Below, in pieces: positions 28,385 through 44,632 of a stretch of 51,115 nt of DNA; the first letter of the stretch is position 1, and each line of letters begins with the position of its first letter. Source of the DNA: Minisyncoccota bacterium (GTDB taxonomy: Bacteria; Patescibacteriota; Minisyncoccia; Phycocordibacterales; UBA9973); assembly GCA_039915165.1 (NCBI GenBank), contig JBDSNU010000017.1:68041-119155 (forward strand), in the 5' to 3' direction. The translations under genes and the position numbers were made by a program. The notes below the pieces were generated by a model, which was not told the DNA's origin, searched no databases, and saw nothing but the letters and a program-made list of their open reading frames with translations.

Positions 28385-29260
28385 TTATTCCGCAGTATTT
28401 TTTCTTGAAAGGTATCCGTAATTTTGAGAATAGACGAAAGTACCTGATGCTCCAATAAAGAAGACTTGTGCAGAGTAGTAAATCCATAATAGTAGGCCAA
28501 CAACTGAACCGGCTGCGCCGTATTCATTTGTACCTGCAAATGAAGTGATGTACCACGATATCAAGAATTTACCGATGAGGAATAGTATAGCGGTGCCAAA
28601 AGCACCAATAACAATTTCTCTATGTGGTAGTTTGGTATCAGGAAGAATTTTGTATATCAAACTAAAGAGTACTGTGGTAATCAATAAGGTAGCAACGATA
28701 TTTATAACCTCAATCAGTAGGCGGTTTTGCAGTAATGCAGGTAATGGGCCTTGATAAAACGACAACAATACGGTGAATGCGACTGAAAACAATAGCAGTA
28801 ATGCACACAATAAGATTAAGAAGAGGGAAATGAAACGCTCTCTAATGAAGTGAAGCACTGTATGTGTTCGACTTTGTGTTAATGGTGCACGACCATCAGG
28901 TAGGCTCCATAGTTCATCGAGGTCATTATTTAGCTCTGCCAATACGCTTAATGCGGCTATAATAAGAACCACCCCGCCGATGATAGTCGCTATAGTTCCA
29001 GCACTCGCAATATAGCTATTATTAATTAATCCTTGAATTACACCGGCTAGGTTTGTACCGATGGTGATATTTAATGTACGACTAATTGCTAGGGCTGTAG
29101 TGTGTCGATCAAAGATTGATCTTACGATAGCAGTAATTAAGATAAATAATGGTGCAACTGAAAAAATTGCATAATAAGAAATCGCTGCCCCCATTCGTGA
29201 CGCGCGCTTGCTTCGCCAATGATCAAATGTTTCTCCAACAAATGTAGTTACCTTATGCAT
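28385..29260 (-). CDS. YihY/virulence factor BrkB family membrane protein
   Basis: GAAISYYAIFSVAP, YKILPD, YGAAGSVVGLLLWIYYSAQVFFIGA; likely start MHKVTT at 29260. Confidence 0.9.
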   Translation of the reverse strand: MHKVTTFVGETFDHWRSKRASRMGAAISYYAIFSVAPLFILITAIVRSIFDRHTTALAISRTLNITIGTNLAGVIQGLINNSYIASAGTIATIIGGVVLIIAALSVLAELNNDLDELWSLPDGRAPLTQSRTHTVLHFIRERFISLFLILLCALLLLFSVAFTVLLSFYQGPLPALLQNRLLIEVINIVATLLITTVLFSLIYKILPDTKLPHREIVIGAFGTAILFLIGKFLISWYITSFAGTNEYGAAGSVVGLLLWIYYSAQVFFIGASGTFVYSQNYGYLSRKNTAE

Positions 29261-29453
29261 CGAGAATAGTATCTTGTTGGTTATCATCGTCACCGATAAT
29301 TCCGTCTTCGAGCTGCTTTTTAGAATCAGCATCAGTTAATTCTTCCTCGGTCTGATTTTTTTCTATAGCATCAATTGGGTTACCGTTTTCGTCTTCTTCA
29401 ACATCGATATCTAGTGTTTCTTCAGGAACATATGTACCATTTTGGTCATCCAT
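29253..29453 (-). CDS. 66-aa very acidic hypothetical protein
   Basis: D/E-rich ORF whose stop overlaps the YihY start (translational coupling). Confidence 0.65.
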   Translation of the reverse strand: MDDQNGTYVPEETLDIDVEEDENGNPIDAIEKNQTEEELTDADSKKQLEDGIIGDDDNQQDTILDA

Positions 29454-29528: not shown

Positions 29529-29777
29529 ATGCATGACCATACAAACAGAACACTGATAGTAGTAATGATTATTATTCTAATTTTGATACTAGTAGCGTAC
29601 TTCCTTCCTCGCGGTGGTTATACGGCCTACTATCCAACAACTGTACAGCGTACTACTCCTGTAATCCGCACTACAGTACCAGTTGGTGGAACCCGAACTA
29701 CAACGTATACCACTACTCCTGTTACGACATATCAGGAAACCACAACAACTTCTTCACAAAACTCAGTTACAAATTAA
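29529..29777 (+). CDS. Small single-TM protein with Thr-rich tail
   Basis: Hydrophobic LIVVMIIILILILVAYFL then T-rich low-complexity tail; start 29529 or 29520. Confidence 0.65.
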   Translation: MHDHTNRTLIVVMIIILILILVAYFLPRGGYTAYYPTTVQRTTPVIRTTVPVGGTRTTTYTTTPVTTYQETTTTSSQNSVTN

Positions 29778-31630
29778 TCCTTATAAAATTCTCTTAAAAA
29801 ATGCTGCGTCTTATCTCTCTCCACAAGAGCTCGATCTGCAGATTGTTCTAGGAGGATAAGTAGTGAGTCTAAAAAGGTTACATCAGAAATGACTGTAATC
29901 TTTTTTAGTATTTCTCTCGCTACTCTTATATGTTCAAGAATAGTATGAACAACATTGTCAATATGGATTTCCCAAAAGTGCTCTTGTAACATAGAGATAT
30001 CAAGTGTTTGCAATGCTTGTATCATAGGCGCACTGATGCTGTTAACGAAGCCTTGTTCAATGTCATGGTGCCAGTCATGGGCATCATCATTAAGTTGTTT
30101 TGCGATGAGGTACTGTATGAAAAAATCCTCAATCAATATTGCTTCTTCTTTGTGTCCAAGTTTGTGACAGAGAAGGATAGGACCTATGGCATGTCCAAGT
30201 GACTTCTGTGCCAGAATCTTTTTATCGGCATAGTCCGGGATAGTTGTTGGAACGCTACCATGCTCGATTCGACAATGTGCATATTCCCATTGTGTTGCTT
30301 CATTTATTCCATCTAGTATTCTTTTTACTATTGCATATTCTTCTGTATTGCAAATAATGTGGAGAGTATCGACCATGGCCAGTATACAAATGTTTGCTAA
30401 AGGCAATTGAGATACATAGTCTTCGCCATCAATAATGTGATCATAAATACTATACCCGATCCACCCCAGTGTATTTATAACAGCTAGGTGTTGTATAAGT
30501 TCTTTGGAAATATTCCCTTGACTGATAAGTTTTTCGGCAAACCAATACGACAGTAATTGAATTTCATTTGAAGGATCTTTGGTTGTTAATGCGCCAAGTG
30601 CTTTTTGTAATTGTATTTTAAGCGCTTCATTATCAGTAATTGTAAGGCATGTGGTTGCCATGGTTCCTATAAAAATTTTTTCCTCGATATCAGGCTGAGG
30701 AGAAGAAAGATGGGCAATAGACTTTTGGCTGAATACTGTTAAGGCCTCAATACAGCACATACTGACATATGCATCACAACTGCTATAAGTAGTTGTATTA
30801 TTTACAATACTCTCAATATAGATATCTGTTGCAGGCCACTGGCCCTTAGTATGTGATCGAAGTATATAATCGATCGCTCGTTCAAGTGATTCAAACGGCA
30901 CATCGTTACTCAATAGTATAGTGATTACAAATGCAGTATGTAAAGGAGAGTTCCAGTGGCCGGCACTATTTTGCATTGCCAGAATTTTTTCAATTACGTC
31001 TTTTTTATATATGCCATTATATGTTTTTGTAATGAAATATAAGCGAGTAATTTCATCATGATAATACGTTGATTTTGTACCGATGTGTATAGTGTGGTCG
31101 AAATACGTTTCCAGTGTAGGAAGAGTAATATTCAACATATGTAAAAAAGTAGCAACATTACTGTTTACTACAACATCGCTCTCTTGCCAGACAGGATTCT
31201 TCAGATCAGTAATCCATGTTTTATATGGACCGCCCGGTAGAGTTTCTTGTTGTATTAAAAGTTCAATAAGTCGCGCGACTACTTCTTCTGTGACAAATTC
31301 TGGCGCCGATTTGTATAGTGCTTGCATGGCAACAAAAGTGTCGTCGATATCATCAGGGTAGGGAATGGTGCTGTACTCGGCACTATTTCTTTGCCAATAG
31401 TTTACTGTGTACTGAGGTGAGAGCTGTTGAAGAATACATGCCGCTGCCTTCTTTTGAATCGATGACCATATTGAGTGATCATTACTGGTTGCAGTAGATA
31501 AGATCAGGCTGGTATAAAACGTTGTTGGTTTGCCTGTATTACTTAAAAAACTACCATTAGTTTGTTGTTGCCTGGCAATAAAATCATATGAATCATTAAT
31601 GGTTTGTTGAATGTGTTTGGTCGGTATCAT
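29774..31630 (-). CDS. Fusion of class II terpene-cyclase/prenyltransferase-beta-like (alpha/alpha barrel) domain and class I isoprenoid-synthase/ComQ-like prenyltransferase domain
   Basis: N-half: QW-like repeats (RQQQTNGSF, AMQNSAGHW, YILRSHTKGQW) and YPDDIDDT (DxDD). C-half: IYDHIIDGE (FARM-like), LAQKS, QLNDDAHDWHHDIEQGFVN (SARM-like). Likely start MIPTK at 31630 overlapping the kinase 3' end. Confidence 0.8.
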   Translation of the reverse strand: MIPTKHIQQTINDSYDFIARQQQTNGSFLSNTGKPTTFYTSLILSTATSNDHSIWSSIQKKAAACILQQLSPQYTVNYWQRNSAEYSTIPYPDDIDDTFVAMQALYKSAPEFVTEEVVARLIELLIQQETLPGGPYKTWITDLKNPVWQESDVVVNSNVATFLHMLNITLPTLETYFDHTIHIGTKSTYYHDEITRLYFITKTYNGIYKKDVIEKILAMQNSAGHWNSPLHTAFVITILLSNDVPFESLERAIDYILRSHTKGQWPATDIYIESIVNNTTTYSSCDAYVSMCCIEALTVFSQKSIAHLSSPQPDIEEKIFIGTMATTCLTITDNEALKIQLQKALGALTTKDPSNEIQLLSYWFAEKLISQGNISKELIQHLAVINTLGWIGYSIYDHIIDGEDYVSQLPLANICILAMVDTLHIICNTEEYAIVKRILDGINEATQWEYAHCRIEHGSVPTTIPDYADKKILAQKSLGHAIGPILLCHKLGHKEEAILIEDFFIQYLIAKQLNDDAHDWHHDIEQGFVNSISAPMIQALQTLDISMLQEHFWEIHIDNVVHTILEHIRVAREILKKITVISDVTFLDSLLILLEQSADRALVERDKTQHFLREFYKD

Positions 31631-33058
31631 ATAAGGGTAGCGATATAATAAATTGTGTCCCAGTACCTTGAGTGCTATATACAACTATTGTTCCATTAAA
31701 TTCATCTTCAATAATTTCTTTTGTTTGAGATAATCCAAACCCTGTTCCTTTCTCATATGTTTTGGTGGTGAAAAAGACAGTAAATATATGCTTTTGTGTC
31801 TCCTCACTCATTCCGCACCCATTATCACTAATAGTAATCTGTAACGAATTAGTATCATGATTAATTTCTTGTGAGATGAGAATTTTCCCTGTCGATGCTC
31901 TATCCTCACATGCTTCAATTGCATTCATAAGTATATTCAAGATAGCTTGATAAAACTTAATTGCATTACCTTGAATCGTGATGGTACCACTACTGATGTG
32001 CTGTATTTCTACATTTGCTTCACGTGCTTTATATTGGACCATATCAATAGCATCCAAGATCTCTTGTTCAGGAGAAAAAAGAGTGCAGTCATCTCTAGTG
32101 CTAATTTGTTTTCGCACTGTTTCAATATAACTCCCCATGCGTTTACTGGCAGTCACCGCTTTGGCAATGTGTTCTTTTACTTCCGGCACATGCTCTGGCG
32201 AATGCTCCAGCCGCTCGACATTATTTGCCACACTATGCAGCGAATTCATGAGATCATGAAATATGCCAGTCGAAAGTTTGCCGAATTCTGCAAAACGATA
32301 CAGCTGCGATATTTTTTCTTTTTGTAACTCCTTTAATTCGCTTGTTCGTTCTTCAACCTTGATTTCCAATAGATTTCTTTCTTCCAGTAATGCTTGTTCA
32401 GAAATACGTGCTCTATGTAGCGAGCGTTCCATTTCGCGATTAGAAAGCCAAGAGACAGCAGTAATCACAAACAATACAAAAGATAGTTGAATGGGTTCAT
32501 GCATGGAGATCCAAGCATGCTTCCAAGATAGATTGGCATGAATAATTTTTTCAATTTGTAAATAAGAAACTGAACAGATAGTGGCAATGTTAATAATAGT
32601 TACAATTACAGAAAATCTTGTTGAAACTAAAATACCTGCAAAGACAATAATTAAAACATAACTAATACCTATAAATGGTAACCATATTGACCATTCAATC
32701 GCACCATATGTTGTACCGATAAAATAAATTAATAGAAGTAAAAAACTACTAAGTTTATGGTGTCCCTTACGTGACAATGCAAGCAAACAAATATTATAAT
32801 AAGGAGAGTGAAATAGGTAAACGGAATTCCATCATAAAGTGCACCCTTACTTATTGCTGCAAGTCCAATGTATATGTCTAGTACAATCAATAGTCCAGTT
32901 ATACAACATAATAATGTATTTAGAATAAATTCATTGCGTTTTATGTCCTCATTCTCTGAGTGTGGTTCAATAAATACCGCATACATAAAATGAATACCGT
33001 GCCGAATCCAAGCCTTAATGCTGAAATGGGCTAGACTGTTTCGATGGCGGGTATTCAT
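31596..33058 (-). CDS. Multi-TM sensor histidine kinase, split by an apparent 1-nt frameshift near 32786
   Basis: H-box FHDLMNSL, N-box NILMNAIEA, DNGCGM, FFTTK, GTGFGL, GTQF. ORFs 32729-33058 and 31596-32786 join (..IIFV|LLALSRKG..) if one T is added in TTTGTTTG. Confidence 0.88.
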
Positions 33059-33078
33059 TTTATGTTACTTAAAAAATT

Positions 33079-33195
33079 TTAATTTTCTCCACCTTCCCAG
33101 GGTAAAAAACTCCCTTCAGAATAGGCCGCCTGTTTTGCCTTTTCTGCAGTGCGAGAATGTGGAGTGGTAAGGATGGCTTCAATGACTTTGTTCAT
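33079..33195 (-). CDS. Unannotated 38-aa peptide MNKVIEAILTTPHSRTAEKAKQAAYSEGSFLPWEGGEN, candidate ComX-like pheromone/RiPP precursor
   Basis: Manual translation; fills the regulator-kinase gap on the same strand; TATACT -10 at 33250-33245; single Trp near the C-terminus. Confidence 0.7.
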   Translation of the reverse strand: MNKVIEAILTTPHSRTAEKAKQAAYSEGSFLPWEGGEN

Positions 33196-33216
33196 GCTGT
33201 GATTATTATTAGCTAA

Positions 33217-33288
33217 GAGCTATTCGACTATGTAGCTCAATACTAGTATAGCGAACAGGCGATAAAGGAAATTGTAATATTTTATAAA
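33217..33288 (-). promoter_or_regulatory. Promoter of peptide-kinase-enzyme unit: TATACT -10, no consensus -35, imperfect direct repeats, leader hairpin
   Basis: Minus strand TTATAA-N4-TTACAA-N5-TTTATC upstream of TATACT; GAGCTA-N10-TAGCTC hairpin at 33217-33238. Confidence 0.45.
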
Positions 33289-33963
33289 CTATCTCATTAA
33301 GTCTATCTTATATCCACGACCAGGCACACTGTGGATTAGTTTGGTTTTGTCTGGCATTTCAATTTTCTTTCTTAGATTAAGAATATGTGTCTCAATAGTA
33401 TTTGAAAAAGGGTCTAAGTCAAGGTCCCAGATATGCTCCATGATTTGACCGCGAGTAACAACAACTGACTTATGCTTAAGCATATATTCTAGTAATGAAA
33501 ATTCTTTGCGAGTGAGGTATATGGATTTGCCATCACGGGCAACTGTTTGTTTGGCTGAGTCGAGAATAAGGTCATCGATAGCCATAAGTGAACTTTGTAT
33601 AGTATGTGGGCGACGTAGTACGGCTTGTATACGCGCATGTAATTCTTCAAAAGAAAATGGTTTTGAAACGTAGTCATCTGCTCCAACATTGAGCCCACGA
33701 ACTTTGTAAGGAGTAGAGTCAGATACTGACATCATGATGATCGGCGTAGTATAGTCAGACAATCGCAAATCCTCACACACAGCGAAGCCATTTTTCTCGG
33801 GTAGGGAATAGTCAAGCAATATAAGGTCATACTCATTGGTTTTAGCCAAATAAATTCCTCTGGTTCCAGTGTCAGCAATATCAACAGCAAAGCCTTTTTC
33901 CTTGAGGCGCTCTCTGAGGTAGTCTTGTGTGTCCGGCTGGTCTTCTATAACTAAAATACGCAT
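33289..33963 (-). CDS. OmpR/PhoB-family response regulator
   Basis: MRILVIED, LILLD (phospho-Asp), GADDYVSKPF, LTRKEFSLLEY, IETHILNLRKKI, VPGRGY. Confidence 0.96.
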   Translation of the reverse strand: MRILVIEDQPDTQDYLRERLKEKGFAVDIADTGTRGIYLAKTNEYDLILLDYSLPEKNGFAVCEDLRLSDYTTPIIMMSVSDSTPYKVRGLNVGADDYVSKPFSFEELHARIQAVLRRPHTIQSSLMAIDDLILDSAKQTVARDGKSIYLTRKEFSLLEYMLKHKSVVVTRGQIMEHIWDLDLDPFSNTIETHILNLRKKIEMPDKTKLIHSVPGRGYKIDLMR

Positions 33964-34058
33964 AAATGAGGTGGTATCTTTATTATATGGCAGGTATCGA
34001 TGAATAGCGACTGCGTAATCTGGATAAAGGGTCTATTTCCTTGATCTTTTCTTTATGC

Positions 34059-34119
34059 TTGACAAAAAAGCCACTATTGAATACTATTCGAACAGCTAAT
34101 AGTTAGTTTAGCTAAGTAA
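34059..34119 (+). promoter_or_regulatory. Promoter TTGACA-N17-TACTAT with overlapping MarR-type operators
   Basis: -35 at 34059-34064, -10 at 34082-34087; inverted repeats ACTATT-N9-AATAGT (34083-34103) and ATAGTTAG-N5-CTAAGTAA (34099-34119). Confidence 0.65.
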
Positions 34120-34550
34120 TGGCCACAATACCGACACAATCATTTGATATAAAGGAGTTGCAGGAACTTATTGGTATCTTCAAGAGAACCATGAGTGACT
34201 TATACAAAAAAGAAACAAGCGTACTGCATTGTTCTCTTTCGCATTTGGAAGTAATGCAATTTATTGGCGAACATACCAACCCTTCTATGAAGGATATTGC
34301 GAGTTACCTGCGCATCACACCACCTTCTGTGACTACAATTATCGAAACAATGGTGGAGCAAGGGTTGGTCAAGCGTGATACTGGCTCAGGTGATCGCCGT
34401 ACTATTCATGTAGTATTGACTCCCAAAGCAGTGAAGCTTTCAACCACACTGCGTGCAAAAAAAAAGGCCATGCTTACGCTTATGCTAAAGAAATTAAGCG
34501 CTGAACAAAAACAACAGTTATCAGATATTATTAAAGCTCTCGTCAAATAA
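34119..34550 (+). CDS. MarR-family transcriptional regulator
   Basis: SMKDIASYLRITPPSVTTIIETMVEQGLVKR...DRR..HVVLT. Confidence 0.93.
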   Translation: MATIPTQSFDIKELQELIGIFKRTMSDLYKKETSVLHCSLSHLEVMQFIGEHTNPSMKDIASYLRITPPSVTTIIETMVEQGLVKRDTGSGDRRTIHVVLTPKAVKLSTTLRAKKKAMLTLMLKKLSAEQKQQLSDIIKALVK

Positions 34551-34552
34551 AT

Positions 34553-35536
34553 ATGAAATCAATTTTTAATACACCTAAAATAATTATCCCACTGGTGGCA
34601 ATTATTGCTATCGTTGCCGGAGTAGTTGCATTCCGCACAGTAGGCAAGGCGCCTATAGTAAACCTTCCTGCAGTTTCTGAAGTTACTGCTTCTGGAACTA
34701 TCGTTACTAATTCATCCGACAATACAGTTGATCTGGCATTTCCGAAAAGTGGACGTGTAGCATCTGTATCAGTAAAAGTAGGTGATCATGTTGTTGCTGG
34801 TCAAACGCTGGCAGCACTTGATGCTGGCGATGCAGCAGGAGTAGTAACACAGGCAAAAGGGGCACTTGAACTCGCAGAAGCACAATATGCTTCTCAAGAT
34901 GTGCAATACGCCAATGCAAAGAAACAGCAAGATGTACTTGTACAGAATGCTCTTCGTACTGTTCGATCAAGTGGAATTGTTGCAACGCCTACAGTTCAGG
35001 ATGACAGTCACATTCCGCTTATCACAGGTACATATACCTGTAGTGCAGAAGGATCATATGTAATAACCCCATATCCATCTGGTGCTAACTCAGGATTCTC
35101 ATTTACCTATAGCGGTCTTGAAAGTGGTAGTGGAGTAGTAACATTTAGTACACCTCAGCCACTTGGTTCTTGTGGTCTATATGTACAGTTCACTCAAGGG
35201 TTTGCTGGCGCAACGAAATGGACTATTGATGTTCCAAATACAAAGTCAGCTACCTATGTAACTAATAAAAACAATTATGATCTTGCTGTAACGACTCGCG
35301 ATCAAGTGCTTAGTCAATTTGCAGCAAACCTTGGACAAAATGGTTCATCTGCTGCGAATACTGCAAAGGCTGCTATTGATACTGCGCGTGGCGTATATCA
35401 GGCCGCACTAGGCGCATACAAAAACAATGTCATCGTTGCTCCTACAAGCGGCACAGTATCGTTCATTGATGCAGATCTAAAAGCTGGGCAGTCAGTTACT
35501 CAGAGCAAAACAGTTATCAGTCTTACTACAAAATAA
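34553..35536 (+). CDS. HlyD/membrane-fusion-like protein with inserted disulfide-containing beta domain
   Basis: N-terminal TM, LAFPKSGRVASVSVKVGDHV lipoyl half, coiled coil, C-terminal IVAPTSGTV; insert with two Cys. Confidence 0.8.
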   Translation: MKSIFNTPKIIIPLVAIIAIVAGVVAFRTVGKAPIVNLPAVSEVTASGTIVTNSSDNTVDLAFPKSGRVASVSVKVGDHVVAGQTLAALDAGDAAGVVTQAKGALELAEAQYASQDVQYANAKKQQDVLVQNALRTVRSSGIVATPTVQDDSHIPLITGTYTCSAEGSYVITPYPSGANSGFSFTYSGLESGSGVVTFSTPQPLGSCGLYVQFTQGFAGATKWTIDVPNTKSATYVTNKNNYDLAVTTRDQVLSQFAANLGQNGSSAANTAKAAIDTARGVYQAALGAYKNNVIVAPTSGTVSFIDADLKAGQSVTQSKTVISLTTK

Positions 35537-35540
35537 ATTT

Positions 35541-36176
35541 ATGGAACAAACTAAAAAAGAAGGTATTTTTTCAAAACCATGGGTGCAGAGCCTTGTCGGC
35601 GTTATCGTCATTGTACTCGCACTTATTGGAGTATTAGTATGGAAGTCTCTTACATCTCATGTATCAATTGATAAGTCCCAGATCACCGCACCAACTATTA
35701 CCATCGGTCCAGAAGTATCTGGTATCTTGGCAGAAGTATATGTAAAACCAGGAGACTTGGTTACAGTAGACGAACCCATTGCTCGTGTTGGTAGTGAAAT
35801 CTTGTCTGCCAAAATTGCCGGTATTGTCATCACTACACAAAACACACCCGGACAAGTATTTGCTCCCGGTATGCCAGTGGTAACAATGATTGACCCAACT
35901 GCATTGCGTGTTGTTGGAACTATTGCTGAAGATAAAGGTCTTTCAGATCTCAAGATTGGTCAGCCAATAACATTTACAGTGGACGCATATGGTAGTCAGA
36001 AATTCACTGGAATCATTGACGAGATCAGTCCTACTTCAAATGATTCAGGTGTTGCATTTACTATTTCTGATCAGCGCGAAACAAAGAACTTCACAGTGAA
36101 GGCACGCTTTGATGTTAGTGCTCATCCTGAATTTAAGAACGGCATGTCAGCTAAGATGACTGTCTATATAAAGTAA
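35541..36176 (+). CDS. Short EmrA/HlyD-family membrane fusion protein (no helical hairpin)
   Basis: TM, SGILAEVYVKPGDLV joined directly to LSAKIAGIV, beta-barrel LKIGQPITFTVDAY. Confidence 0.85.
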   Translation: MEQTKKEGIFSKPWVQSLVGVIVIVLALIGVLVWKSLTSHVSIDKSQITAPTITIGPEVSGILAEVYVKPGDLVTVDEPIARVGSEILSAKIAGIVITTQNTPGQVFAPGMPVVTMIDPTALRVVGTIAEDKGLSDLKIGQPITFTVDAYGSQKFTGIIDEISPTSNDSGVAFTISDQRETKNFTVKARFDVSAHPEFKNGMSAKMTVYIK

Positions 36177-36177
36177 T

Positions 36178-37668
36178 ATGGAGACTACAGTTGAAAAGAA
36201 AGATACCCTCAAGTGGTGGATTCTAGTCACTGTTATTGTCGGAACATTTCTCGGACGTCTCGATCAAACTATTGTTAACCTGGCATTGCCAAACATCATT
36301 AGTGATTTTCGTATCAGTGTTAGTTCTGCTGGATGGATTGCCACTGCATACATTCTAGCGAATGCGATCTTTGTGCCTATTTGGGGTAAGCTTGGAGATA
36401 CTATCGGACGTAAAAAAGTCTATATCATTGGCTTCACAGTATTCATCATTGGATCAGTATTGGCTGGTTTTGCCTGGAACCTCCCATCGATGATTGTATT
36501 TCGCGTTATCCAAGCGATTGCTGGTTCTGCTGACTATCCCACAGCTATGGCAATTCTTGCAGTGACTTTCAAGGAAGGCAAAGAACGCGGACAAGCACTC
36601 GGTATCTGGTCTAGTTCATTTGCTGCGGCTAGTGTGTTCGGACCACTATTGGGAGGTCCATTGATTGATCACTTCGGTTGGCGTTCAGTATTTTTGATCA
36701 ACCTACCAGTTGGTATTGTGGGATTACTGATGGCGATGAAATACATCCATGAGTCTCGCTCTGAAATAAAGTCCACATTCTTTGACTGGTGGGGCGCTAT
36801 TACTCTTGGTGGAATGCTTTCATCACTTGTACTTGTGCTTGATAAAGGTGCTGAGTGGGGATGGATGTCAGTATCAAGTTTGATTTGTTACTTCTTGATT
36901 GTTGTTCTTACAGGGTTATTTATCCGCATTGAAAATAATGTATCTGAACCGATTGTTGATCTACGTTTCTTCAAGATTCCTGCATTTGTTAATACACTCG
37001 TCAACAACTTTGTAGTCTTCATGGGATTGATGGGTGGATTGTTCTTGTTGCCAGTTTTTGCTCAAACCTTCCTTGGATACAATGCAACACAAACAGGATA
37101 CTTGTTTATGCCAATGGCTGCCGCACTCATGTTGGGTGCGCCTATTGGTGGTGCATTAGCTGGTAAGGTACAAGCTCGCTATGTAATTTTTGCTAGTACC
37201 ATTGTTACTGCAATAGGGCTCTATATGTTTTCTTTCTTGGATCCGAAATCGACCGCACTGAGTTTGATGATCCCGCTGTGTGTTATGGCATTTGGTCTTG
37301 GCTTCGGTATGGCGCAACGTACAAACGTTATCGCTTCTGTTGTTGATCAGCATGAAATTGGTATTGCATCATCGATCCTTGCACTCGCACGTAATGTTGC
37401 CGGTGCATTTGGTATTGCAGTATTTGGTACCATTCTGACAAATCGTACAAAGGCAAACATTATGAGTATCAATAGTTTTAGTCATCTTTATAGTCACACA
37501 CCATTGAATATTCAAAAGTTTATTACATTGATTGAACTTAAGGCGCAAATTAATGCCTATAACTATGTCTTCGTAGTGGTGAGTATAGTGGTGGCGGTCG
37601 GAGCATTCTCCGTGCTATGGCTCAAATTAAAAAATGAACGAACAGATATTACTGTACATGTAGAATAA
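36178..37668 (+). CDS. DHA2 (EmrB/QacA-type) MFS efflux transporter
   Basis: LDQTIVNLALP, WIATAYIL, GKLGDTIGRKK, GPLLGG, WRSVFLINLPVG. Confidence 0.93.
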   Translation: METTVEKKDTLKWWILVTVIVGTFLGRLDQTIVNLALPNIISDFRISVSSAGWIATAYILANAIFVPIWGKLGDTIGRKKVYIIGFTVFIIGSVLAGFAWNLPSMIVFRVIQAIAGSADYPTAMAILAVTFKEGKERGQALGIWSSSFAAASVFGPLLGGPLIDHFGWRSVFLINLPVGIVGLLMAMKYIHESRSEIKSTFFDWWGAITLGGMLSSLVLVLDKGAEWGWMSVSSLICYFLIVVLTGLFIRIENNVSEPIVDLRFFKIPAFVNTLVNNFVVFMGLMGGLFLLPVFAQTFLGYNATQTGYLFMPMAAALMLGAPIGGALAGKVQARYVIFASTIVTAIGLYMFSFLDPKSTALSLMIPLCVMAFGLGFGMAQRTNVIASVVDQHEIGIASSILALARNVAGAFGIAVFGTILTNRTKANIMSINSFSHLYSHTPLNIQKFITLIELKAQINAYNYVFVVVSIVVAVGAFSVLWLKLKNERTDITVHVE

Positions 37669-38038: not shown

Positions 38039-41000
38039 ATGAAAAACAATAAAATCCCAGGACGTCTTTTTTATAAGGTAGTTGCTGCGATTTTGTTGCC
38101 TACATTTTTTCTCAGTAGTATTACAGCTGTCTTTGCAGAAGAGTCTGTTACTACTACGCAGTCTGAGACAGTAACTCAAACCCCAAATACGACAGCTCCA
38201 GAATCTTTAGACACAATTACAACTACTACACCATCAGATACAACTTCCATGGAGCAGCCAAGTGTTGCTGTGTCAAAACCAGCTACCGATCCAATCGAAT
38301 CGTTAAAAACAGAAAATATAAAACTCGAAAAAACATCACCATCAGGTGCAAAGTCAGCAACAGCTTCAAGCTCCATTGCAGGTACGTCGTCATCTAGTAG
38401 TGCCCCTGTTCAACAAACTGATCAGCCACAATTATCGGTTGCATCAAAAAGTAAATTAATTCCACAGGTTGATAATACGACAGGCGCTTTGCGTTATAAT
38501 TTCCCTGTTACTATTGCTAAAGGAAGAAATAATATGACTCCTGATATCGCGCTGCAATATAATAGTCAAAATATCGCCACTGATTCAATTGTGGGATATG
38601 GATGGAATATTTCCATACCATATATCCAGCGAGAAAATAAGCACGGTGTGGACCAGATCTATTCAAGTACATATAATGATTTTACAACAAGTGATAATGG
38701 CGAGTTGGGGCAAATCAGTGGTGTAAACTATCAACTTAAGTCCGATGATGGGTCATTTTCAAAATATGTATTTTCTTCGAACACCTGGACTGTTACAGAT
38801 AAAACTGGAGTAGTATATAAATATGGAACAACTGCTGCTTCGCAACAAAATGATTCTGTAACAACTGCAAATGTATACAAATGGATGCTCGATAGTGCCA
38901 CTGATACTAATGGTAATTCAATTTCTTATACCTACTTCAAAGATCAAGGTCAGATTTATCCTGATACAATTACTTATACCAATACTTCTGGTGGCACAGG
39001 AATTTTTAGTGTTGTGTTTACTCATGCAGCTGCTGCATCCACCGGGGCGAGCAGTTATGTAACTGGATTTGGAGTTATTACAGGATATAATATTACTGCA
39101 ATAACTTCAAAAATCTCAGGTGTTACTCGTCACAAATATGATCTAACATACGTGAATGGCAGTAACAATAACAAGCAATTATTATCTACGATTATAGAAA
39201 CAGGATATAACACTAGTGGTACTAGTACAGTATTTCCTGCAACTCGTCTTAGTTATACTACGGGTAATGGGAAAACATTTAGTACAACTGCTGCAACATT
39301 GCCAACATATACATTGCCAGGTGGAACAACTCGACAAGATGCACGATTAGGTGACAGTGGCGATAATGCTTATGTATGGCCATATTCAAAAACTGGTACA
39401 TTGATTGATGTTAACGGCGACGGCTATCCTGATTGGATAAACTCTGAGTTGTCTGATTATGCAACTGGGTCAAGCTCTAATGGCAAATTTTATGATGTAT
39501 GGCTTGGTTCAGCGAGTGGTTGGATATTGAGTACATCATGGACGGCTGCAATACCTGTGGATTCAACAGGTAAGGTATATTCATTATCTGACTCTCAAAA
39601 TAATAAGCTTGTTGATATAAACGGCGACGGATTACCTGATTGGGTGATTTCAACACCAGGTTCAACAGTTAATTTTGATACCGCTGTAGTATGGCTCAAC
39701 AATGGTTCAGGGTGGACAAAGACGACTACTTGGACAATGCCAACTATGACTGTTTCTGGAACAGTATATGGAGTTGCTGTTAATTCCTCAACTCCGGTAG
39801 TACATGGTGTTCCAAATAATATTGGTCCAAGTGGTTATAACTACTTCACTAATCTTGTCGATGTAAACAATGATGGGCTTGTTGATTTAGTGCAAACATC
39901 ATCAGACAATTTCGGTGCTTCAACTATTTCAGATCACCACGCAGTGTATTTAAACACAGGAACTGGTTGGACTAAATCCACCACCTGGACAATGCCAGTG
40001 CATCCAACAGGAAGTGGTACATATTTCGGATCATCAGTAGATAATTTAAGTGGCACAAATGTAATTCTTGATGTGAATGGCGACGGTTTACCTGATTGGA
40101 TTGAAACAGGTGGGTATAGCGCATCATCAACAGAAAATTATGTACTTTGGTTGAATACAGGTGCAGGATGGGTACGCAGTACAACGTGGGCACTTCCAGT
40201 TCATACTGTAACACCTCCAACAGGAGCGTTTCCGGAGCAGGGTGTGCGCCTCGGTTCTAGTTACATAATTTGTGACTACGGCAGCGGATCATATAACTGT
40301 GCGGTTCGTGTCAATGCATTGGCTGATGTGAATGGCGACGGCTTACCTGATTTTGTTGAGACATACAACAACCTTTCTGGAAGTACTGTATCATTCAGTG
40401 AATATAATGACGTTTGGTTGAATAATGGTAAGAATGGATGGATTCAAAAAACTTCTTGGTATATGCCACAATATTACGGCTATGGCACACCAATTCGATT
40501 AGGTAATGACGGGGTGTATAGTGTACAACTTTCTGATGTAAACAATGATGGACTTTTAGACTTTGTTGCTAGTTGTGATTGCGGTAGAACAGGAAGTGCC
40601 TATTACCCGCAATCATCGAACGTATTTTTAAATAGTGGGTCAGGATGGAGTGTTGCTGGTTACACCTTACCAAACAGAAGTGCTAGTTATCCCTATGATG
40701 GTTCTGTACTTGGATTTACTGATTTTACTTACGGAGTAAATGTACCAGTAACTCACCACAGAACTGCAGTGCTACAAGATATAAACAATGACGGTTCCCC
40801 TGATTGGATTGAATCTAACCAATTTGATACGCCTCCCAATTTGACGCCAAATCCTGCAGCATATGAACGTCATGGAGTATGGAGTAATTCTGCAACACAA
40901 TCAGATCTTTTGTCATCAATTACTTATGATCACGGTGCATCATCTAGTTTTATCTACACTCCACAGGTTATTGTTGATAAAAATGCAACCACTCAGACTC

Positions 41001-44000
41001 AAACAGTTGAGGCTGTGACCTCAACTACTCTCAATGATGGCATTGGAGGTTCTGGTGTAACCACATACAGTTATATTAATGGAAAATACTTTTATTCTAC
41101 AAATAAAACTTGGAAAAAATTCGCTGGATTCCAAAAAGTGACAATTACTAATCCTGATGGTGGTAAGGTGATTAATTATTATCACCAGGGTAATGGGATC
41201 GACACCGCAACTTATGAATATAGCGATGCAGAATCAGAAATAGGAAAGCTATACCGTACTGATATTACAGATGCAGCTGGTAATCTCTATAAGCGCACAA
41301 CAATAGAGTGGGCAAAGACATTAATAACTTCTGTAAATAGTGATGTGTATTTTGTATACCCAATTCAAACCATCGCTGAAACGTTTGATGGTAATGCATC
41401 TGAGCGGGCAACAGCAGAAACATTTGCATATAACACTACTACTGGAAATCTCACTACTGATACAAATTATGGGGAGGTTACAGTGACAACTCCAATTGCA
41501 TATACTGATATTGGAACTGATAAACAGGTAACAACTTATACGTATGCAACAAATGTTGGCGGTATGTATTTAGTATCTGATGAAAACGTGGTGGACCAAT
41601 CAACTGTTAAGATTCGTGAGATTCGGCATTACTATGATTCACTCGCACTTGGTTCAGTAACCCTTGGAAATGAGACAAAGACAGAAAAGTGGAAAATAGC
41701 AACAACATATATAAATACACAAAAAACATACAATAGTTATGGACTTCCTGTAACAAGTACTGATGAGCGAGGAAAAGTGACTAGCTACACCACATATGAT
41801 ACATACAATCTATACCCGCTGACCATCACAGACCCTATGTCGCACGCTATACAGCTTACGTACGACTACATGTTTGGAGCAATATTACAAAAGACCGATT
41901 TTAATAGTGATATTTATATTACAACCTACGATGGTATGGGAAGAGTGCTAAGTCAGCAAATCCCAGAGCCACTAACTGGGGCATCAACACTACGAGAAAC
42001 TATTAGTTATGGAGATTATTCAACAGGCGCATCGACCTTAGAAAAAATTTTCTATACAGACTCATCAGTCAATTATAAAATTGATGATTGGTTTGATGGT
42101 CTTGGTAAGTTGATTGAAGAAAATAGACAAATTGACCCTATAAATTTTTGGCGCAACTACCAGGCAAAGGATTATTGGTATGATGGAGGTGGCCGATTAA
42201 TTAAATCTTCGCTCCCGTATTTAACTTTGGGAGGAGGTAATAATAGAGGGGCAGGTGCGGCAGCACTTAATACTACATACACTTATGATGTATTAGGTCG
42301 GGTACTCACTGCGACTAATACTCTCGGAGTAACTACAACCTCATATGATGACTGGAAGACAACGGTTACTGATCCGAATACAAATGTTAAAAAATACTAC
42401 ACTGATGCTTATGACAACTTAGTTAAGGTCGATGAAATCAACGGTGTTTCAACATATACCACAGTGTACGCTTGGAATCTTAATAAGAATCTTATTAAGA
42501 TTACAGATGCATTAAGTAATGTGCGTAACTTTACTTACGATGGACTCGGCCGTAGATTAACTGCGGAAGATCTTCATGTATCCACTGATACATCATTTGG
42601 TTCATGGTCATATACATATGATGATGCAGGCAACATAACACAATCAATTAGTCCAAATGCTGCAACGGTAAATTATACGTATGATAATGCAGGCCGAAAA
42701 CTCACAGAAGACAATATCGGTGTTGTAGGTACTGAAATTACCTATACCTATGATACTTGCACACAAGGCATCGGGAAGTTGTGTACAGTTACAATGCTCA
42801 CAGGAACTGGAGCAAATACAGCTTATACATATAATTATGATGGGGCAGTTGCAAGTGAAAATAAAACAATTAATAGTACTTCATTTCTAACATCGTATAT
42901 ATACAATCTTGCTGGAGATATTACTTCTATCACATACCCGGATAATTCTGTTGTGCAATATAGCTATATTAGTGACGGTTTGATTAATTCAGTTCAGCAA
43001 AAGGAAAGTGGGGGTAGTTTTGCAACTGTAGTTAATTCGATTACATATACTCCAAATTTTGCAATTTCATATATTCATTATGTAAATGGTGATAGTACTA
43101 CAATTACTAACGATGCTACAAAAATGTACCGCACAACTCGTCGACTTAGTATAGATGGGACGCCAAGTAATATTCAGGATTCAAACTATACCTACGATGC
43201 TAATGGAAATATTACTAATTATATTGATGCTTCTATTCAAGATACTTCAAAAACAGTTGCATACACTTATGATGCACTCAATCGTATAAAGACTGCTACT
43301 GCTACGGGCGTTCATAGTGGTACGACTGCGTACGCAGAAACATATAACTATGATGCTCTAGGGAATATTAGTTCAAAAAACGGACTAACTTATCTTTATC
43401 AAGGAAATACTGGAACACTAAAAACTAATCCAGATGGTGCCACATCAATCAACGGCGTTACATATACCTATGATGCAGATGGAAATCTGACAACTAATGG
43501 AACTATTACAAACACTTGGAACTATAAAGATCAAGTGACACAAACAGTAAAAGGAGCTACTACTGTTAATTACTACTATGACCAAGAAGGTAATCGTGTC
43601 TGGTACAAAGTTGGTACAACAAACACTTACTACCCAAATAAATATTATAATTATGACGGTACAACAAAAACCAAACAGATTTATCTCGGCAATCAATTAA
43701 TCGGTACGTTTAAAACAGTTGCTGGGGTAACAACTCCTTGGTATATCATTGGAGATAATATCTTAGGAACAAGTTTAGCAATATCAAACACTGGTGCTGT
43801 TACTCAGGTTCTCGATTACTTACCATTTGGTGATATTCGTCTTAATGAAAAAACCGGAACGATTGATGAAAAAAATAAGTTTGGTGGGCATGAGTATGAC
43901 ACTGAGACCGACCTTAACTATTTCGGAGCGCGTTACTATAATGCGAAGATTGGACGGTTTATTTCAGAAGACCCCTCATTTCTTATGATTGGAGACAGTA

Positions 44001-44632
44001 ACCAAACTAAGAATATTACTGGTCAGGACTTGCAACAGCTACTTATGGACCCGCAATCCTTGAATTCTTATTCATATGTTGAGAATAACCCACTTATCAA
44101 AATTGATCCTGATGGTAAATATTGGCAATTATCAGCGTCTGCAACAGCTTTAGGTTGGAGTGGAGAAGTGGGAATAAGAGGAGATACAACAGGATTAAAC
44201 CTTGTCGTATCAGGAGGGCTTGGGGTTGGTTTAGAAGGAAAACCTTTATCACTTTCCTATACTCCAGGAGAGGTAAATCATGAGGTAGAAACATCAACTG
44301 TTGTAGGAGGAAGTGGGGCATATTTCGCTGGTCTCGGAATATCAAGAGAGGGTACGTATATACCAAGTACATATAGTCTTGCAAATTCATCAGTTCAAAA
44401 ATCTCTGATATTAGGATTAGGATTGGATGCATACGCAAGAAAGGAGATATCAGTCCCTATTCTTGGAAAACAACAATTTGCTGCAGTCACAAGACAGCAC
44501 GCGGTTGAATATATGAGTAGTGGAAAAAATCAATTACAAGCAAATATGTCTAAAGGTACAAATACAAGTACGTCTACACAAAATAATTTTTCACCAACTA
44601 TAAATAATGTGTTAAAATCGTTCAAGAGATAA
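38039..44632 (+). CDS. Secreted SpvB-N / FG-GAP / YD-RHS repeat polymorphic toxin (TcB-TcC-like fusion)
   Basis: Signal peptide (..ITAVFA|EE); SpvB-like TGALRYNFPV..GRNNMTPDIALQYNS..GYGW; seven D(V/I)NxDGxxD repeats; YD repeats; RHS core GHEYDTETDLNYFGARYY...YSYVENNPLIKIDPDG; 171-aa C-terminal domain. Confidence 0.92.
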   Translation: MKNNKIPGRLFYKVVAAILLPTFFLSSITAVFAEESVTTTQSETVTQTPNTTAPESLDTITTTTPSDTTSMEQPSVAVSKPATDPIESLKTENIKLEKTSPSGAKSATASSSIAGTSSSSSAPVQQTDQPQLSVASKSKLIPQVDNTTGALRYNFPVTIAKGRNNMTPDIALQYNSQNIATDSIVGYGWNISIPYIQRENKHGVDQIYSSTYNDFTTSDNGELGQISGVNYQLKSDDGSFSKYVFSSNTWTVTDKTGVVYKYGTTAASQQNDSVTTANVYKWMLDSATDTNGNSISYTYFKDQGQIYPDTITYTNTSGGTGIFSVVFTHAAAASTGASSYVTGFGVITGYNITAITSKISGVTRHKYDLTYVNGSNNNKQLLSTIIETGYNTSGTSTVFPATRLSYTTGNGKTFSTTAATLPTYTLPGGTTRQDARLGDSGDNAYVWPYSKTGTLIDVNGDGYPDWINSELSDYATGSSSNGKFYDVWLGSASGWILSTSWTAAIPVDSTGKVYSLSDSQNNKLVDINGDGLPDWVISTPGSTVNFDTAVVWLNNGSGWTKTTTWTMPTMTVSGTVYGVAVNSSTPVVHGVPNNIGPSGYNYFTNLVDVNNDGLVDLVQTSSDNFGASTISDHHAVYLNTGTGWTKSTTWTMPVHPTGSGTYFGSSVDNLSGTNVILDVNGDGLPDWIETGGYSASSTENYVLWLNTGAGWVRSTTWALPVHTVTPPTGAFPEQGVRLGSSYIICDYGSGSYNCAVRVNALADVNGDGLPDFVETYNNLSGSTVSFSEYNDVWLNNGKNGWIQKTSWYMPQYYGYGTPIRLGNDGVYSVQLSDVNNDGLLDFVASCDCGRTGSAYYPQSSNVFLNSGSGWSVAGYTLPNRSASYPYDGSVLGFTDFTYGVNVPVTHHRTAVLQDINNDGSPDWIESNQFDTPPNLTPNPAAYERHGVWSNSATQSDLLSSITYDHGASSSFIYTPQVIVDKNATTQTQTVEAVTSTTLNDGIGGSGVTTYSYINGKYFYSTNKTWKKFAGFQKVTITNPDGGKVINYYHQGNGIDTATYEYSDAESEIGKLYRTDITDAAGNLYKRTTIEWAKTLITSVNSDVYFVYPIQTIAETFDGNASERATAETFAYNTTTGNLTTDTNYGEVTVTTPIAYTDIGTDKQVTTYTYATNVGGMYLVSDENVVDQSTVKIREIRHYYDSLALGSVTLGNETKTEKWKIATTYINTQKTYNSYGLPVTSTDERGKVTSYTTYDTYNLYPLTITDPMSHAIQLTYDYMFGAILQKTDFNSDIYITTYDGMGRVLSQQIPEPLTGASTLRETISYGDYSTGASTLEKIFYTDSSVNYKIDDWFDGLGKLIEENRQIDPINFWRNYQAKDYWYDGGGRLIKSSLPYLTLGGGNNRGAGAAALNTTYTYDVLGRVLTATNTLGVTTTSYDDWKTTVTDPNTNVKKYYTDAYDNLVKVDEINGVSTYTTVYAWNLNKNLIKITDALSNVRNFTYDGLGRRLTAEDLHVSTDTSFGSWSYTYDDAGNITQSISPNAATVNYTYDNAGRKLTEDNIGVVGTEITYTYDTCTQGIGKLCTVTMLTGTGANTAYTYNYDGAVASENKTINSTSFLTSYIYNLAGDITSITYPDNSVVQYSYISDGLINSVQQKESGGSFATVVNSITYTPNFAISYIHYVNGDSTTITNDATKMYRTTRRLSIDGTPSNIQDSNYTYDANGNITNYIDASIQDTSKTVAYTYDALNRIKTATATGVHSGTTAYAETYNYDALGNISSKNGLTYLYQGNTGTLKTNPDGATSINGVTYTYDADGNLTTNGTITNTWNYKDQVTQTVKGATTVNYYYDQEGNRVWYKVGTTNTYYPNKYYNYDGTTKTKQIYLGNQLIGTFKTVAGVTTPWYIIGDNILGTSLAISNTGAVTQVLDYLPFGDIRLNEKTGTIDEKNKFGGHEYDTETDLNYFGARYYNAKIGRFISEDPSFLMIGDSNQTKNITGQDLQQLLMDPQSLNSYSYVENNPLIKIDPDGKYWQLSASATALGWSGEVGIRGDTTGLNLVVSGGLGVGLEGKPLSLSYTPGEVNHEVETSTVVGGSGAYFAGLGISREGTYIPSTYSLANSSVQKSLILGLGLDAYARKEISVPILGKQQFAAVTRQHAVEYMSSGKNQLQANMSKGTNTSTSTQNNFSPTINNVLKSFKR
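39400..40810 (+). repeat. Seven FG-GAP/VCBS-like repeats within the RHS protein
   Basis: DVNGDGYPD, DINGDGLPD, DVNNDGLVD, DVNGDGLPD x2, DVNNDGLLD, DINNDGSPD, most followed by (V/L)(W/Y/F)LNxGxGW. Confidence 0.85.

Follow-up and report, generated by a model that had tools for sequence, protein, structure and literature searches.

A short tryptophan-bearing peptide gene in a putative prenylation-cyclisation and two-component cassette of Patescibacteria

We have analysed a stretch of 51,115 nucleotides from a Minisyncoccota bacterium (assembly GCA_039915165.1, contig JBDSNU010000017.1, positions 68,041 to 119,155 of the forward strand; the whole stretch is called the window below). On its minus strand we find a 38-codon gene that is part of a four-gene cassette, in the order OmpR-type response regulator, peptide, histidine kinase with about six transmembrane (TM) segments, and two-domain enzyme. 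The peptide open reading frame (ORF) is a genuine gene that is under purifying selection at the protein level in this frame. Judging from the sequences of the cassette and from analogy to described systems, we give slightly better than an even chance to the reading in which the peptide would be a precursor that is terpenylated on its tryptophan, and a lower one to its also being sensed by the kinase.

The first-pass annotation of the window had drawn attention to a small ATG-started ORF with a single tryptophan at position -6 and to a TATACT hexamer in front of it, and both are present. The ORF starts with ATG at 33195 and runs on the minus strand for 38 codons before the TAA at 33081..33079, giving the product MNKVIEAILTTPHSRTAEKAKQAAYSEGSFLPWEGGEN; its sole tryptophan is residue 33 (TGG, 33099..33097), the sixth from the C-terminal end, and TATACT lies at 33250..33245 of the same strand. 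Conservation of the frame and of the tryptophan in related genomes, on which that annotation had staked its reading, was found in all nine syntenic loci. These nine, eight close and one distant, were taken with their upstream flanks from enzyme-bearing related genomes, and each contains an ORF of 35-38 codons in the same frame, its start being identical in position and its stop nearly so. The peptides of the eight close loci fit the pattern M[KNQ]K.IE..L....R........A.....F[TL]PW[EA] followed by 1-5 more residues, and the ninth, distant locus, whose enzyme is 28% identical, encodes the peptide MNTVMKELLTNVASRTNVAATTAKVLNAGQPWAGE.

Within the genus, the mean proportion of synonymous differences in the peptide frame (pS) is 0.73, which is near saturation, as compared to 0.33 for nonsynonymous differences (pN). 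The median ratio of nonsynonymous to synonymous substitution rates (dN/dS) is 0.25 among the 27 of 45 genus pairs for which dS is finite, with values of 0.17/0.63 for the closest pair. By contrast, pS and pN are similar in both shifted frames (0.40 vs 0.44 and 0.34 vs 0.43). Since pS far exceeds pN in the peptide frame and in neither of the others, we conclude that selection acts on the encoded protein. The peptide has no signal sequence, and no Pfam or NCBIfam family matches it at E-values up to 0.1. The window's own version is missing from a collection of about 15 billion proteins and is thus unannotated.

The genome from which the window comes (782 kb in 22 contigs, 98% complete) devotes about 4.7 kb of its 0.78 Mb to the cassette. 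The gap between the regulator and kinase genes measures 230 nucleotides and is mostly filled by the peptide ORF, whose stop lies 20 nucleotides from the kinase start at 33058. The features of the locus are as follows.

33289..33963, minus strand: OmpR-family response regulator, 224 residues (Pfam Response_reg 8.7e-29, Trans_reg_C 1.1e-23)
33245..33250, minus strand: -10-like hexamer TATACT between the regulator and peptide genes, read directly
33217..33238, minus strand: hairpin GAGCTA-CATAGTCGAA-TAGCTC in the 5′ untranslated region (5′-UTR), with the conserved loop motif GTCGA, supported by stem counts
33079..33195, minus strand: precursor-like peptide gene, 38 codons, with a putative leader of about residues 1-16 and the Trp33 codon at 33099..33097
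32729..33058, minus strand: 5′ piece of the histidine kinase, 109 codons, with the cytoplasmic N-terminus and the first two TM segments
31596..32786, minus strand: 3′ piece of the histidine kinase, 396 codons, with further TM segments, DHp and HATPase_c
29774..31630, minus strand: two-domain enzyme, 618 residues from its ATG, in an ORF that is open from a TTG at 31684
31351..31340, minus strand: motif DIDD in the enzyme N-domain, a predicted class II terpene cyclase beta-domain
30442..30428 and 30088..30074, minus strand: motifs DHIID and DDAHD in the trans-prenyl-synthase-like enzyme C-domain

The cassette is not confined to this genus. A scan with the enzyme alignment over one genome per species gave 315 loci with a relative, and the counts out of 80 given here and below refer to the best 80 of these; their labels comprise Nomura-, Sacchari-, Doudna-, Davies-, Levy-, Colwell-, Morani-, Roizman- and Shapirobacteria, Microgenomates and CPR2, a few of the genome labels being evidently mis-binned. 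The annotation had proposed a profile search built from syntenic small ORFs. Performed with a hidden Markov model from the nine genus peptides and one iteration, it identified, in 70 of the 80 loci, a small ORF that stands right before the kinase gene on the enzyme strand, and nine of the ten misses have no DNA upstream of the kinase start, such that the peptide is found in 70 of 71 evaluable Patescibacteria loci. The kinase gene sits between the peptide and enzyme genes in 76/80 loci, and a regulator match was found upstream of the enzyme in 58/80.

An alignment of 70 peptides, from which one identical duplicate, two sequences with uncertain starts and genus duplicates were left out, displays the organisation that one would expect of a precursor. 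The N-terminal 16 residues are kept, with the consensus M-K-x-L-I-x-K-[IV]-L-T-D-K-x-A-R; a variable stretch comes next, and an invariant tryptophan stands near the end. L9, R15 and W33 are invariant in all 70, and the spacing from Arg15 to Trp33 is nearly fixed at 18 residues. Exactly one tryptophan is present in 68/70 peptides, proline directly precedes it in 55/70, and 1-6 residues follow it in every case, none of the peptides ending in tryptophan. Their length is 34-40 residues. The middle third varies freely from polar to hydrophobic, and the core is strongly hydrophobic in many lineages, as for instance in LSAFALTTVSVGSPWS. In two loci, L049 and L061, the peptides end in Cys-Cys after the tryptophan (PWECC and PWCC), which sets them apart from the other members.

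When the profile of this alignment was compared with 1.84 billion cluster representatives, 652 proteins were retrieved at E-values up to 0.001. The best 150 of these are almost all 34-40 residues long, and all 150 carry a tryptophan, which in 148 lies 0-7 residues from the end; where the source names representatives of the family at all, it is only as "hypothetical protein". Peptide and enzyme also occur together: among 61 related genomes the enzyme is present in 12 and the peptide profile in 11, all of them within those 12, an observation that is descriptive rather than statistical because kin are not independent. The twelfth enzyme-bearing genome has only enzyme fragments, at contig ends, and the peptide profile matched in none of the 49 related genomes that lack the enzyme. 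Conversely, a reciprocal metagenome scan that was seeded only with a 12-sequence sub-alignment of the peptide gave eight loci, in which the regulator lies upstream in 7/7 evaluable cases, the kinase downstream in 6/6 and the enzyme after the kinase in 2/2.

What does the enzyme do? Members of the family are 618-636 residues long and consist of two domains, and the enzyme has no Pfam match above noise and none to PF00348 at E-values up to 0.1. A profile of 34 aligned homologues (the basis of all motif counts for the enzyme) matches, in its N-terminal half, the class II beta-domain of drimenol synthase (9mhs_B) with an E-value of 1.6e-12 over profile positions 26-303. In this match the family motif PdDLDDT aligns on the general-acid motif PDDLDTT of 9mhs; PMC12232559 describes a DXDT motif for drimenol synthase with D323 as the general acid. 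D94, D96 and T98 are invariant in 34/34 enzymes, and D97 is conserved in at least 90%. The N-domain is thereby assigned, on its sequence, as a class II terpene cyclase beta-domain with a DxDD-type motif. A LanC-like or protein-prenyltransferase-beta identity of this domain was also considered and was dropped, given the match of the profile to class II cyclases and a peptide that is free of cysteine in most lineages.

As to the C-terminal half (residues 335-636), its predicted structure in the Atlas resembles two clusters, which we take as leads: one named "class 1 isoprenoid biosynthesis enzyme" (TM-score 0.79/0.77) and a polyprenyl synthetase cluster (TM-score 0.76), both made up of Bacillota proteins of about 300 residues. 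With hhalign, the segment RQLNDDAHDW falls on the FQxxDDxxD of polyprenyl synthases from the same loci, i.e., on their second aspartate-rich motif (SARM), with a probability of 62% and an E-value of 7e-5 in this single comparison. The residues D397, D401, Q512, D515, D516, H518, D519, W520 and D523 are invariant in 34/34 enzymes, Q512 standing three residues before D515-D516. This fold-level and partial profile similarity suggests a trans-prenyl-synthase-like class I domain. The neighbouring enzyme carries a class I-like domain, as the first-pass annotation had expected, and the domain is of the kind that prenylates tryptophan in ComQ, PalQ and ChrPC. A profile search for distant named relatives of the enzyme gave 75 matches, all of them full-length and Patescibacteria-type, and no bridge to Bacteroidota or Bacillota.

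The kinase would be the sensor of the system. Intact homologues are 484-510 residues long and have about six hydrophobic segments with short loops in the first 210 residues; they contain HATPase_c and give a weak, sub-threshold match to 6TM_PilS. In the window's kinase, HATPase_c is recognised in the 3′ piece (Pfam 1.7e-23), together with a weak HisKA (PF00512) match. Language-model and structure comparisons of the sensor part point, as a lead only, to MASE-type membrane sensor modules.

From these parts we propose the following mechanism. The peptide would be made by the ribosome as a precursor, its conserved N-terminal part serving as the recognition leader. In the class I-like domain, a prenyl diphosphate would be ionised and its isoprenoid used to alkylate Trp33; in the class II domain, protonation of the distal double bond would make the chain cyclise, be it already attached to the peptide or still free. 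With this lipid, and probably in a trimmed form, the peptide would most likely be the ligand of the polytopic kinase, which would signal to the OmpR-type regulator encoded upstream and so close a producer-sensor loop. Precursor-like conservation, together with an adjacent enzyme that joins prenylation and cyclisation activities, leads us to read the peptide as the substrate of the enzyme, a step we regard as probable by a modest measure. That the product is the signal read by the kinase is, overall, a more tentative proposition, which we place somewhat below an even chance. Because the class II cyclase domain is intact, a plain ComX-type geranyl- or farnesyl-tryptophan is not the likeliest product; a peptide with a terpene on its tryptophan, probably a cyclised one, seems the best candidate.

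Precedents for a tryptophan-prenylated peptide would be found in ComQ/ComX, in PalP-PalX-PalQ and in ChrPC. The cassette shares with ComQXPA four adjacent genes on the same strand, which encode a prenyl enzyme of the isoprenoid-synthase superfamily, a short pre-peptide whose tryptophan stands near the C-terminus, a polytopic kinase and a regulator, without a dedicated protease or exporter. The first-pass annotation had likened the peptide to ComX, with a leader and a core. The conserved N-terminus, the variable stretch and the invariant near-terminal tryptophan agree with this, but none of the cassette proteins belongs to the ComX, ComQ, ComP or ComA families: the four of them gave no family match to PF00348, PF05952, PF07730 or PF00196, the Pfam families that define ComQXPA according to PMC4008528. 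We consider the earlier interpretation to be partly supported, as right in its logic but not in the family; the mature form GSFLPWEGGEN that it put forward is a guess. The regulator is OmpR-type and not, like ComA, NarL/GerE-type (its match to GerE, PF00196, is at 0.0052, below the cut-off), the kinase lacks the HisKA_3 (PF07730) of ComP, and the order regulator-peptide-kinase-enzyme differs from that of ComQXPA. ComX is described in PMC4008528 as having 52-73 residues, a tryptophan within the last 5-10 residues and an extremely variable sequence. The sixth position from the end thus fits, whereas our peptides, at 34-40 residues, are shorter and their leader is strongly conserved. Likewise, the ComQ described there is a single-domain protein of about 300 residues belonging to PF00348; the enzyme here is twice as long, with an extra class II cyclase domain, and it keeps the DDxxD second motif, while ComQ is given as lacking a SARM in PMC10853753.

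PalP-PalX-PalQ of Paenibacillus alvei resembles the cassette in clustering a kinase, a tryptophan-containing precursor and a class I-fold tryptophan prenyltransferase (PMC10853753). The aspartates of PalQ given there, D89/D93 and D200/D204, have DxxxD spacing and lie about 111 residues apart; here D397/D401 and D515-D519 are 118 apart. PalX carries an NHLP leader in that description, and Pfam detects no NHLP domain in our peptide. The review PMC13290415 further states that the tryptophan of PalX is strictly C-terminal and that C-terminal extensions abolish PalQ activity, unlike the situation here, where 1-6 residues follow the tryptophan in 70/70 peptides. PalQ also has no cyclase domain, in contrast to our enzyme.

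By analogy, the closest described chemistry is that of the ChrPC-type prenyltransferase-cyclase maturases, so that the chemistry we propose would already be described in kind. According to PMC13290415, the P domain of ChrPC, which is like a trans-isoprenyl diphosphate synthase (trans-IDS), prenylates an internal tryptophan with C10-C20 donors, and an MstE-like C domain cyclises the prenyl group; a glutamine just upstream of the SARM is common to ComQ, ChrPC and PalQ and is linked to tryptophan recognition. Our enzyme, compared with ChrPC by description only, similarly combines a trans-IDS-like prenyltransferase and a monodomain class II cyclase in one polypeptide and has the conserved glutamine before the SARM (Q512, 34/34), although this residue does not discriminate on its own, since canonical trans-prenyl synthases also carry FQxxDD. 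What sets the cassette apart from ChrPC is the 34-40-residue precursor, which has a leader motif of its own, the fixed link to a two-component system, the occurrence in Patescibacteria and possibly the domain order, the cyclase being N-terminal here. A likeness also exists to the drimenol synthase AsDMS (PDB 9mhs) and the monodomain cyclase MstE, with which our enzyme shares a beta-only class II cyclase domain and an aligned DxD(D/T) motif. According to PMC12232559, however, AsDMS is fused to a HAD phosphatase, as opposed to the class I domain found here, and acts on free farnesyl diphosphate. Our literature search found no description of the cassette in Patescibacteria, though the ChrPC study (Hubrich et al. 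2024, Chem 10:3224) may already list homologues.

A prenyl donor would have to be supplied to such an enzyme. In 15/80 loci the cassette has a canonical polyprenyl diphosphate synthase gene as a neighbour (three of the 15 were confirmed by Pfam): nine of these genes follow it directly on its own strand, three lie downstream in the opposite orientation and three lie upstream. In L040, L066, L069, L072, L091, L096, L097, L102 and L103 the adjoining synthase is downstream, and in L057 and L067 a synthase gene stands between the regulator and the peptide gene. The genome studied here has a single polyprenyl synthase, which is encoded elsewhere (C8:278301-279017).

Several observations weigh against the proposal of a terpenylated peptide signal. 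On the side of the enzyme, the first aspartate motif is DxxxD instead of the canonical DDxxD, and the diphosphate-binding residues R368 and R370 of drimenol synthase have W148 and D150 as their aligned counterparts, for which reason the substrate of the cyclase domain is uncertain and may perhaps not be a free diphosphate. On the side of supply, no match to IspH, HMG-CoA reductase, GHMP kinase or UppS was found in the 98%-complete genome; going by these matches, the organism appears unable to make its own isopentenyl diphosphate, and the prenyl donor would need salvaged precursors. No conserved protease or exporter accompanies the cassette in the 80 loci, ABC (ATP-binding cassette) exporters lying near it in 14/80 without a fixed place. 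One locus, L062, has the enzyme and neither kinase nor peptide within the available 1.3 kb upstream, and the co-occurrence of peptide and enzyme among kin is non-independent evidence.

A further point of this kind concerns the kinase of the window itself, whose reading frame changes near 32780..32792 between a first piece at 33058..32729 and a second at 32786..31596. The 5′ piece aligns to residues 1-93 of an intact 484-residue homologue, in a different frame from the rest, and the 3′ piece to residues 91-484 with 63% identity. In the Logan contigs for two runs of a single rhizosphere study (depth 13 and 23), which may be the source of this DNA, 31550..34000 recurs with no differences. The same sequence in the contigs of both runs argues that the frameshift is not a one-off assembly slip, and a minor in-frame allele may coexist. 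Owing to the frameshift, the sensing arm may be impaired or split in this genome. Among the runs listed as carrying the sequence there is no RNA run.

The region upstream of the peptide gene provides some hints about its expression. TATACT lies 50 nucleotides upstream of the ATG, and a TAT(A/G)(C/A)(T/A) hexamer occupies the same place in 10/10 genus-level loci, as TATACT in eight of them. A scan with the sigma-70 consensus did not flag this site for want of a -35 match; the region's promoter-like sites do not exceed shuffled controls (24 vs 18.7 +/- 4.8), and no terminator-like site was found on the minus strand of the region. Just upstream of TATACT, at 33255..33290 on the minus strand and also in L025-L032, there are direct TTTAT[CA] repeats about 22 nucleotides apart, which were seen by eye. 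Standing at the expected -35 position, they could be a candidate binding site of the OmpR-type regulator.

Between the -10-like hexamer and the ATG sits the hairpin 33238..33217, whose loop ends in GTCGA. This motif is found 27-58 nucleotides before the ATG (75 in one distant locus) in 36 loci, which belong to lineages whose peptide gene is not preceded by a Shine-Dalgarno sequence; it is missing from loci in which a strong GGAGGTGA immediately precedes the ATG. A stem of at least six pairs flanks the motif in 28/36 loci, as compared to 130/1121 control GTCG[AT] sites from the same loci; stems were counted with an anchored script, since a MAFFT alignment of the hairpins was inconsistent in register. 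The stems covary, their sequences differing from locus to locus, with GAGCTAT/ATAGCTC, TCGCTATT/AATAGCGA, GGCCTTTTT/AAAAAGGCC and CATTGATTT/AGATCAATG as examples. Allowing G.U pairs lengthens the stem in 21/36 loci and allowing A.C pairs in 14/36, and the more frequent effect of G.U lends weak support to an RNA that folds in the coding-strand orientation. An Rfam search of 32900..33500 at E-values up to 10 gave only a chance-level match to a viral pseudoknot.

How else might the cassette be understood? Bacteria of the Candidate Phyla Radiation (CPR) live attached to hosts, and this counts towards the view that the modified peptide is an effector lipopeptide, either membrane-active or aimed at hosts or competitors, whose production or immunity would be regulated by the two-component system. 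The strongly hydrophobic core in many lineages and the ABC exporters near the cassette in some loci point the same way, as does the fact that the ChrPC and NctPC products described in PMC13290415 are natural products of the class of ribosomally synthesised and post-translationally modified peptides and not pheromones. Yet no immunity gene is conserved in the cassette, and the peptide gene was never seen without the kinase, which is wedged between it and the enzyme gene in 76/80 loci in a wiring that matches ComQXPA and PalPXQ; we therefore regard an effector as unlikely. We see a still smaller chance that the peptide is a small cytoplasmic protein that stays unmodified, be it a kinase-binding inhibitor or activator like Sda or a regulatory subunit of the enzyme, with a free cyclic terpenoid as the ligand. 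A pair of class II and class I domains can indeed yield a free terpenoid, as in bifunctional terpene synthases (PMC12232559), neither a signal sequence nor a conserved protease or exporter is present, and the fixed spacing of L9, R15 and W33 would suit a folded mini-protein. The invariant lone tryptophan near the C-terminus, however, stands beside an enzyme with a Gln-SARM domain, a signature that the review PMC13290415 reports only for tryptophan prenyltransferases. Moreover, a middle third that varies freely would be unusual for a folded binder.

Arrest peptides such as TnaC and SecM are the models for a third view, according to which the ORF would be a regulatory leader peptide that controls the kinase gene at the level of translation. 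It could draw on the 20 nucleotides that separate the ORF from the kinase ATG, on a Pro-Trp pair near the stop codon (proline before tryptophan in 55/70), on a length that should be compatible with the ribosomal exit tunnel and on the conserved 5′-UTR hairpin, which suggests post-transcriptional control. But the best-conserved part, the N-terminal 16 residues, would have left the peptidyl-transferase centre far behind by termination, the stretch that follows the tryptophan varies from 0 to 7 residues, amino-acid conservation extends to phylum-scale divergence over 652 cluster representatives, and an enzyme that resembles tryptophan prenyltransferases would be left without an acceptor. Among the explanations considered, an arrest peptide fits least and strikes us as highly improbable.

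A bolder version of the terpenylated-signal reading takes the cassette as a Patescibacteria-wide signalling system in which the tryptophan of a ribosomal peptide receives a cyclised, host-derived terpene and the product is read back by a MASE-like 6-TM kinase, such that the whole acts as a combined quorum and host sensor. The lipid part would come from the host because the genome, in common with many CPR genomes, shows no isopentenyl diphosphate pathway. We hold this version to be quite improbable as it stands.

The surroundings of the cassette may be mentioned briefly. Downstream of the enzyme, 28385..29332 on the minus strand encodes a YihY/BrkB-family membrane protein (Pfam 2.6e-42), and the same neighbour occurs in 7/80 loci. 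A divergent operon at 34119..37668 on the plus strand comprises a MarR regulator (Pfam), two HlyD-like proteins of the membrane-fusion type and a 496-residue MFS-type transporter, the HlyD-like pair and the transporter being judged by eye. MarR and a 327-residue protein also adjoin the cassette in L016, L018, L020 and L021. Further on, 38039..44632 on the plus strand encodes a secreted protein of 2197 residues, in whose translation many YD/RHS-like repeats were recognised by eye.

A large part of bacterial diversity belongs to the Patescibacteria, whose genomes are tiny and which for the most part live on other cells. To our knowledge, the means by which they perceive one another or their hosts are poorly understood, and in the literature that we searched no signalling system of their own is described for these bacteria. 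Since the peptide gene has been missed by annotation, genome surveys recognise no more than a "terpene" enzyme and a sensor-regulator pair at these loci. If the reading of a terpenylated precursor is correct, the prenylation and cyclisation of tryptophan in ribosomal peptides would be extended to a substrate that is short and well defined and has a conserved leader, and may serve peptide lipidation. Were the lipid in addition derived from the host, the signal would give information on contact with the host or on its lipid supply besides population density. Kept in many lineages, the cassette is a concrete and testable candidate for signalling in Patescibacteria.

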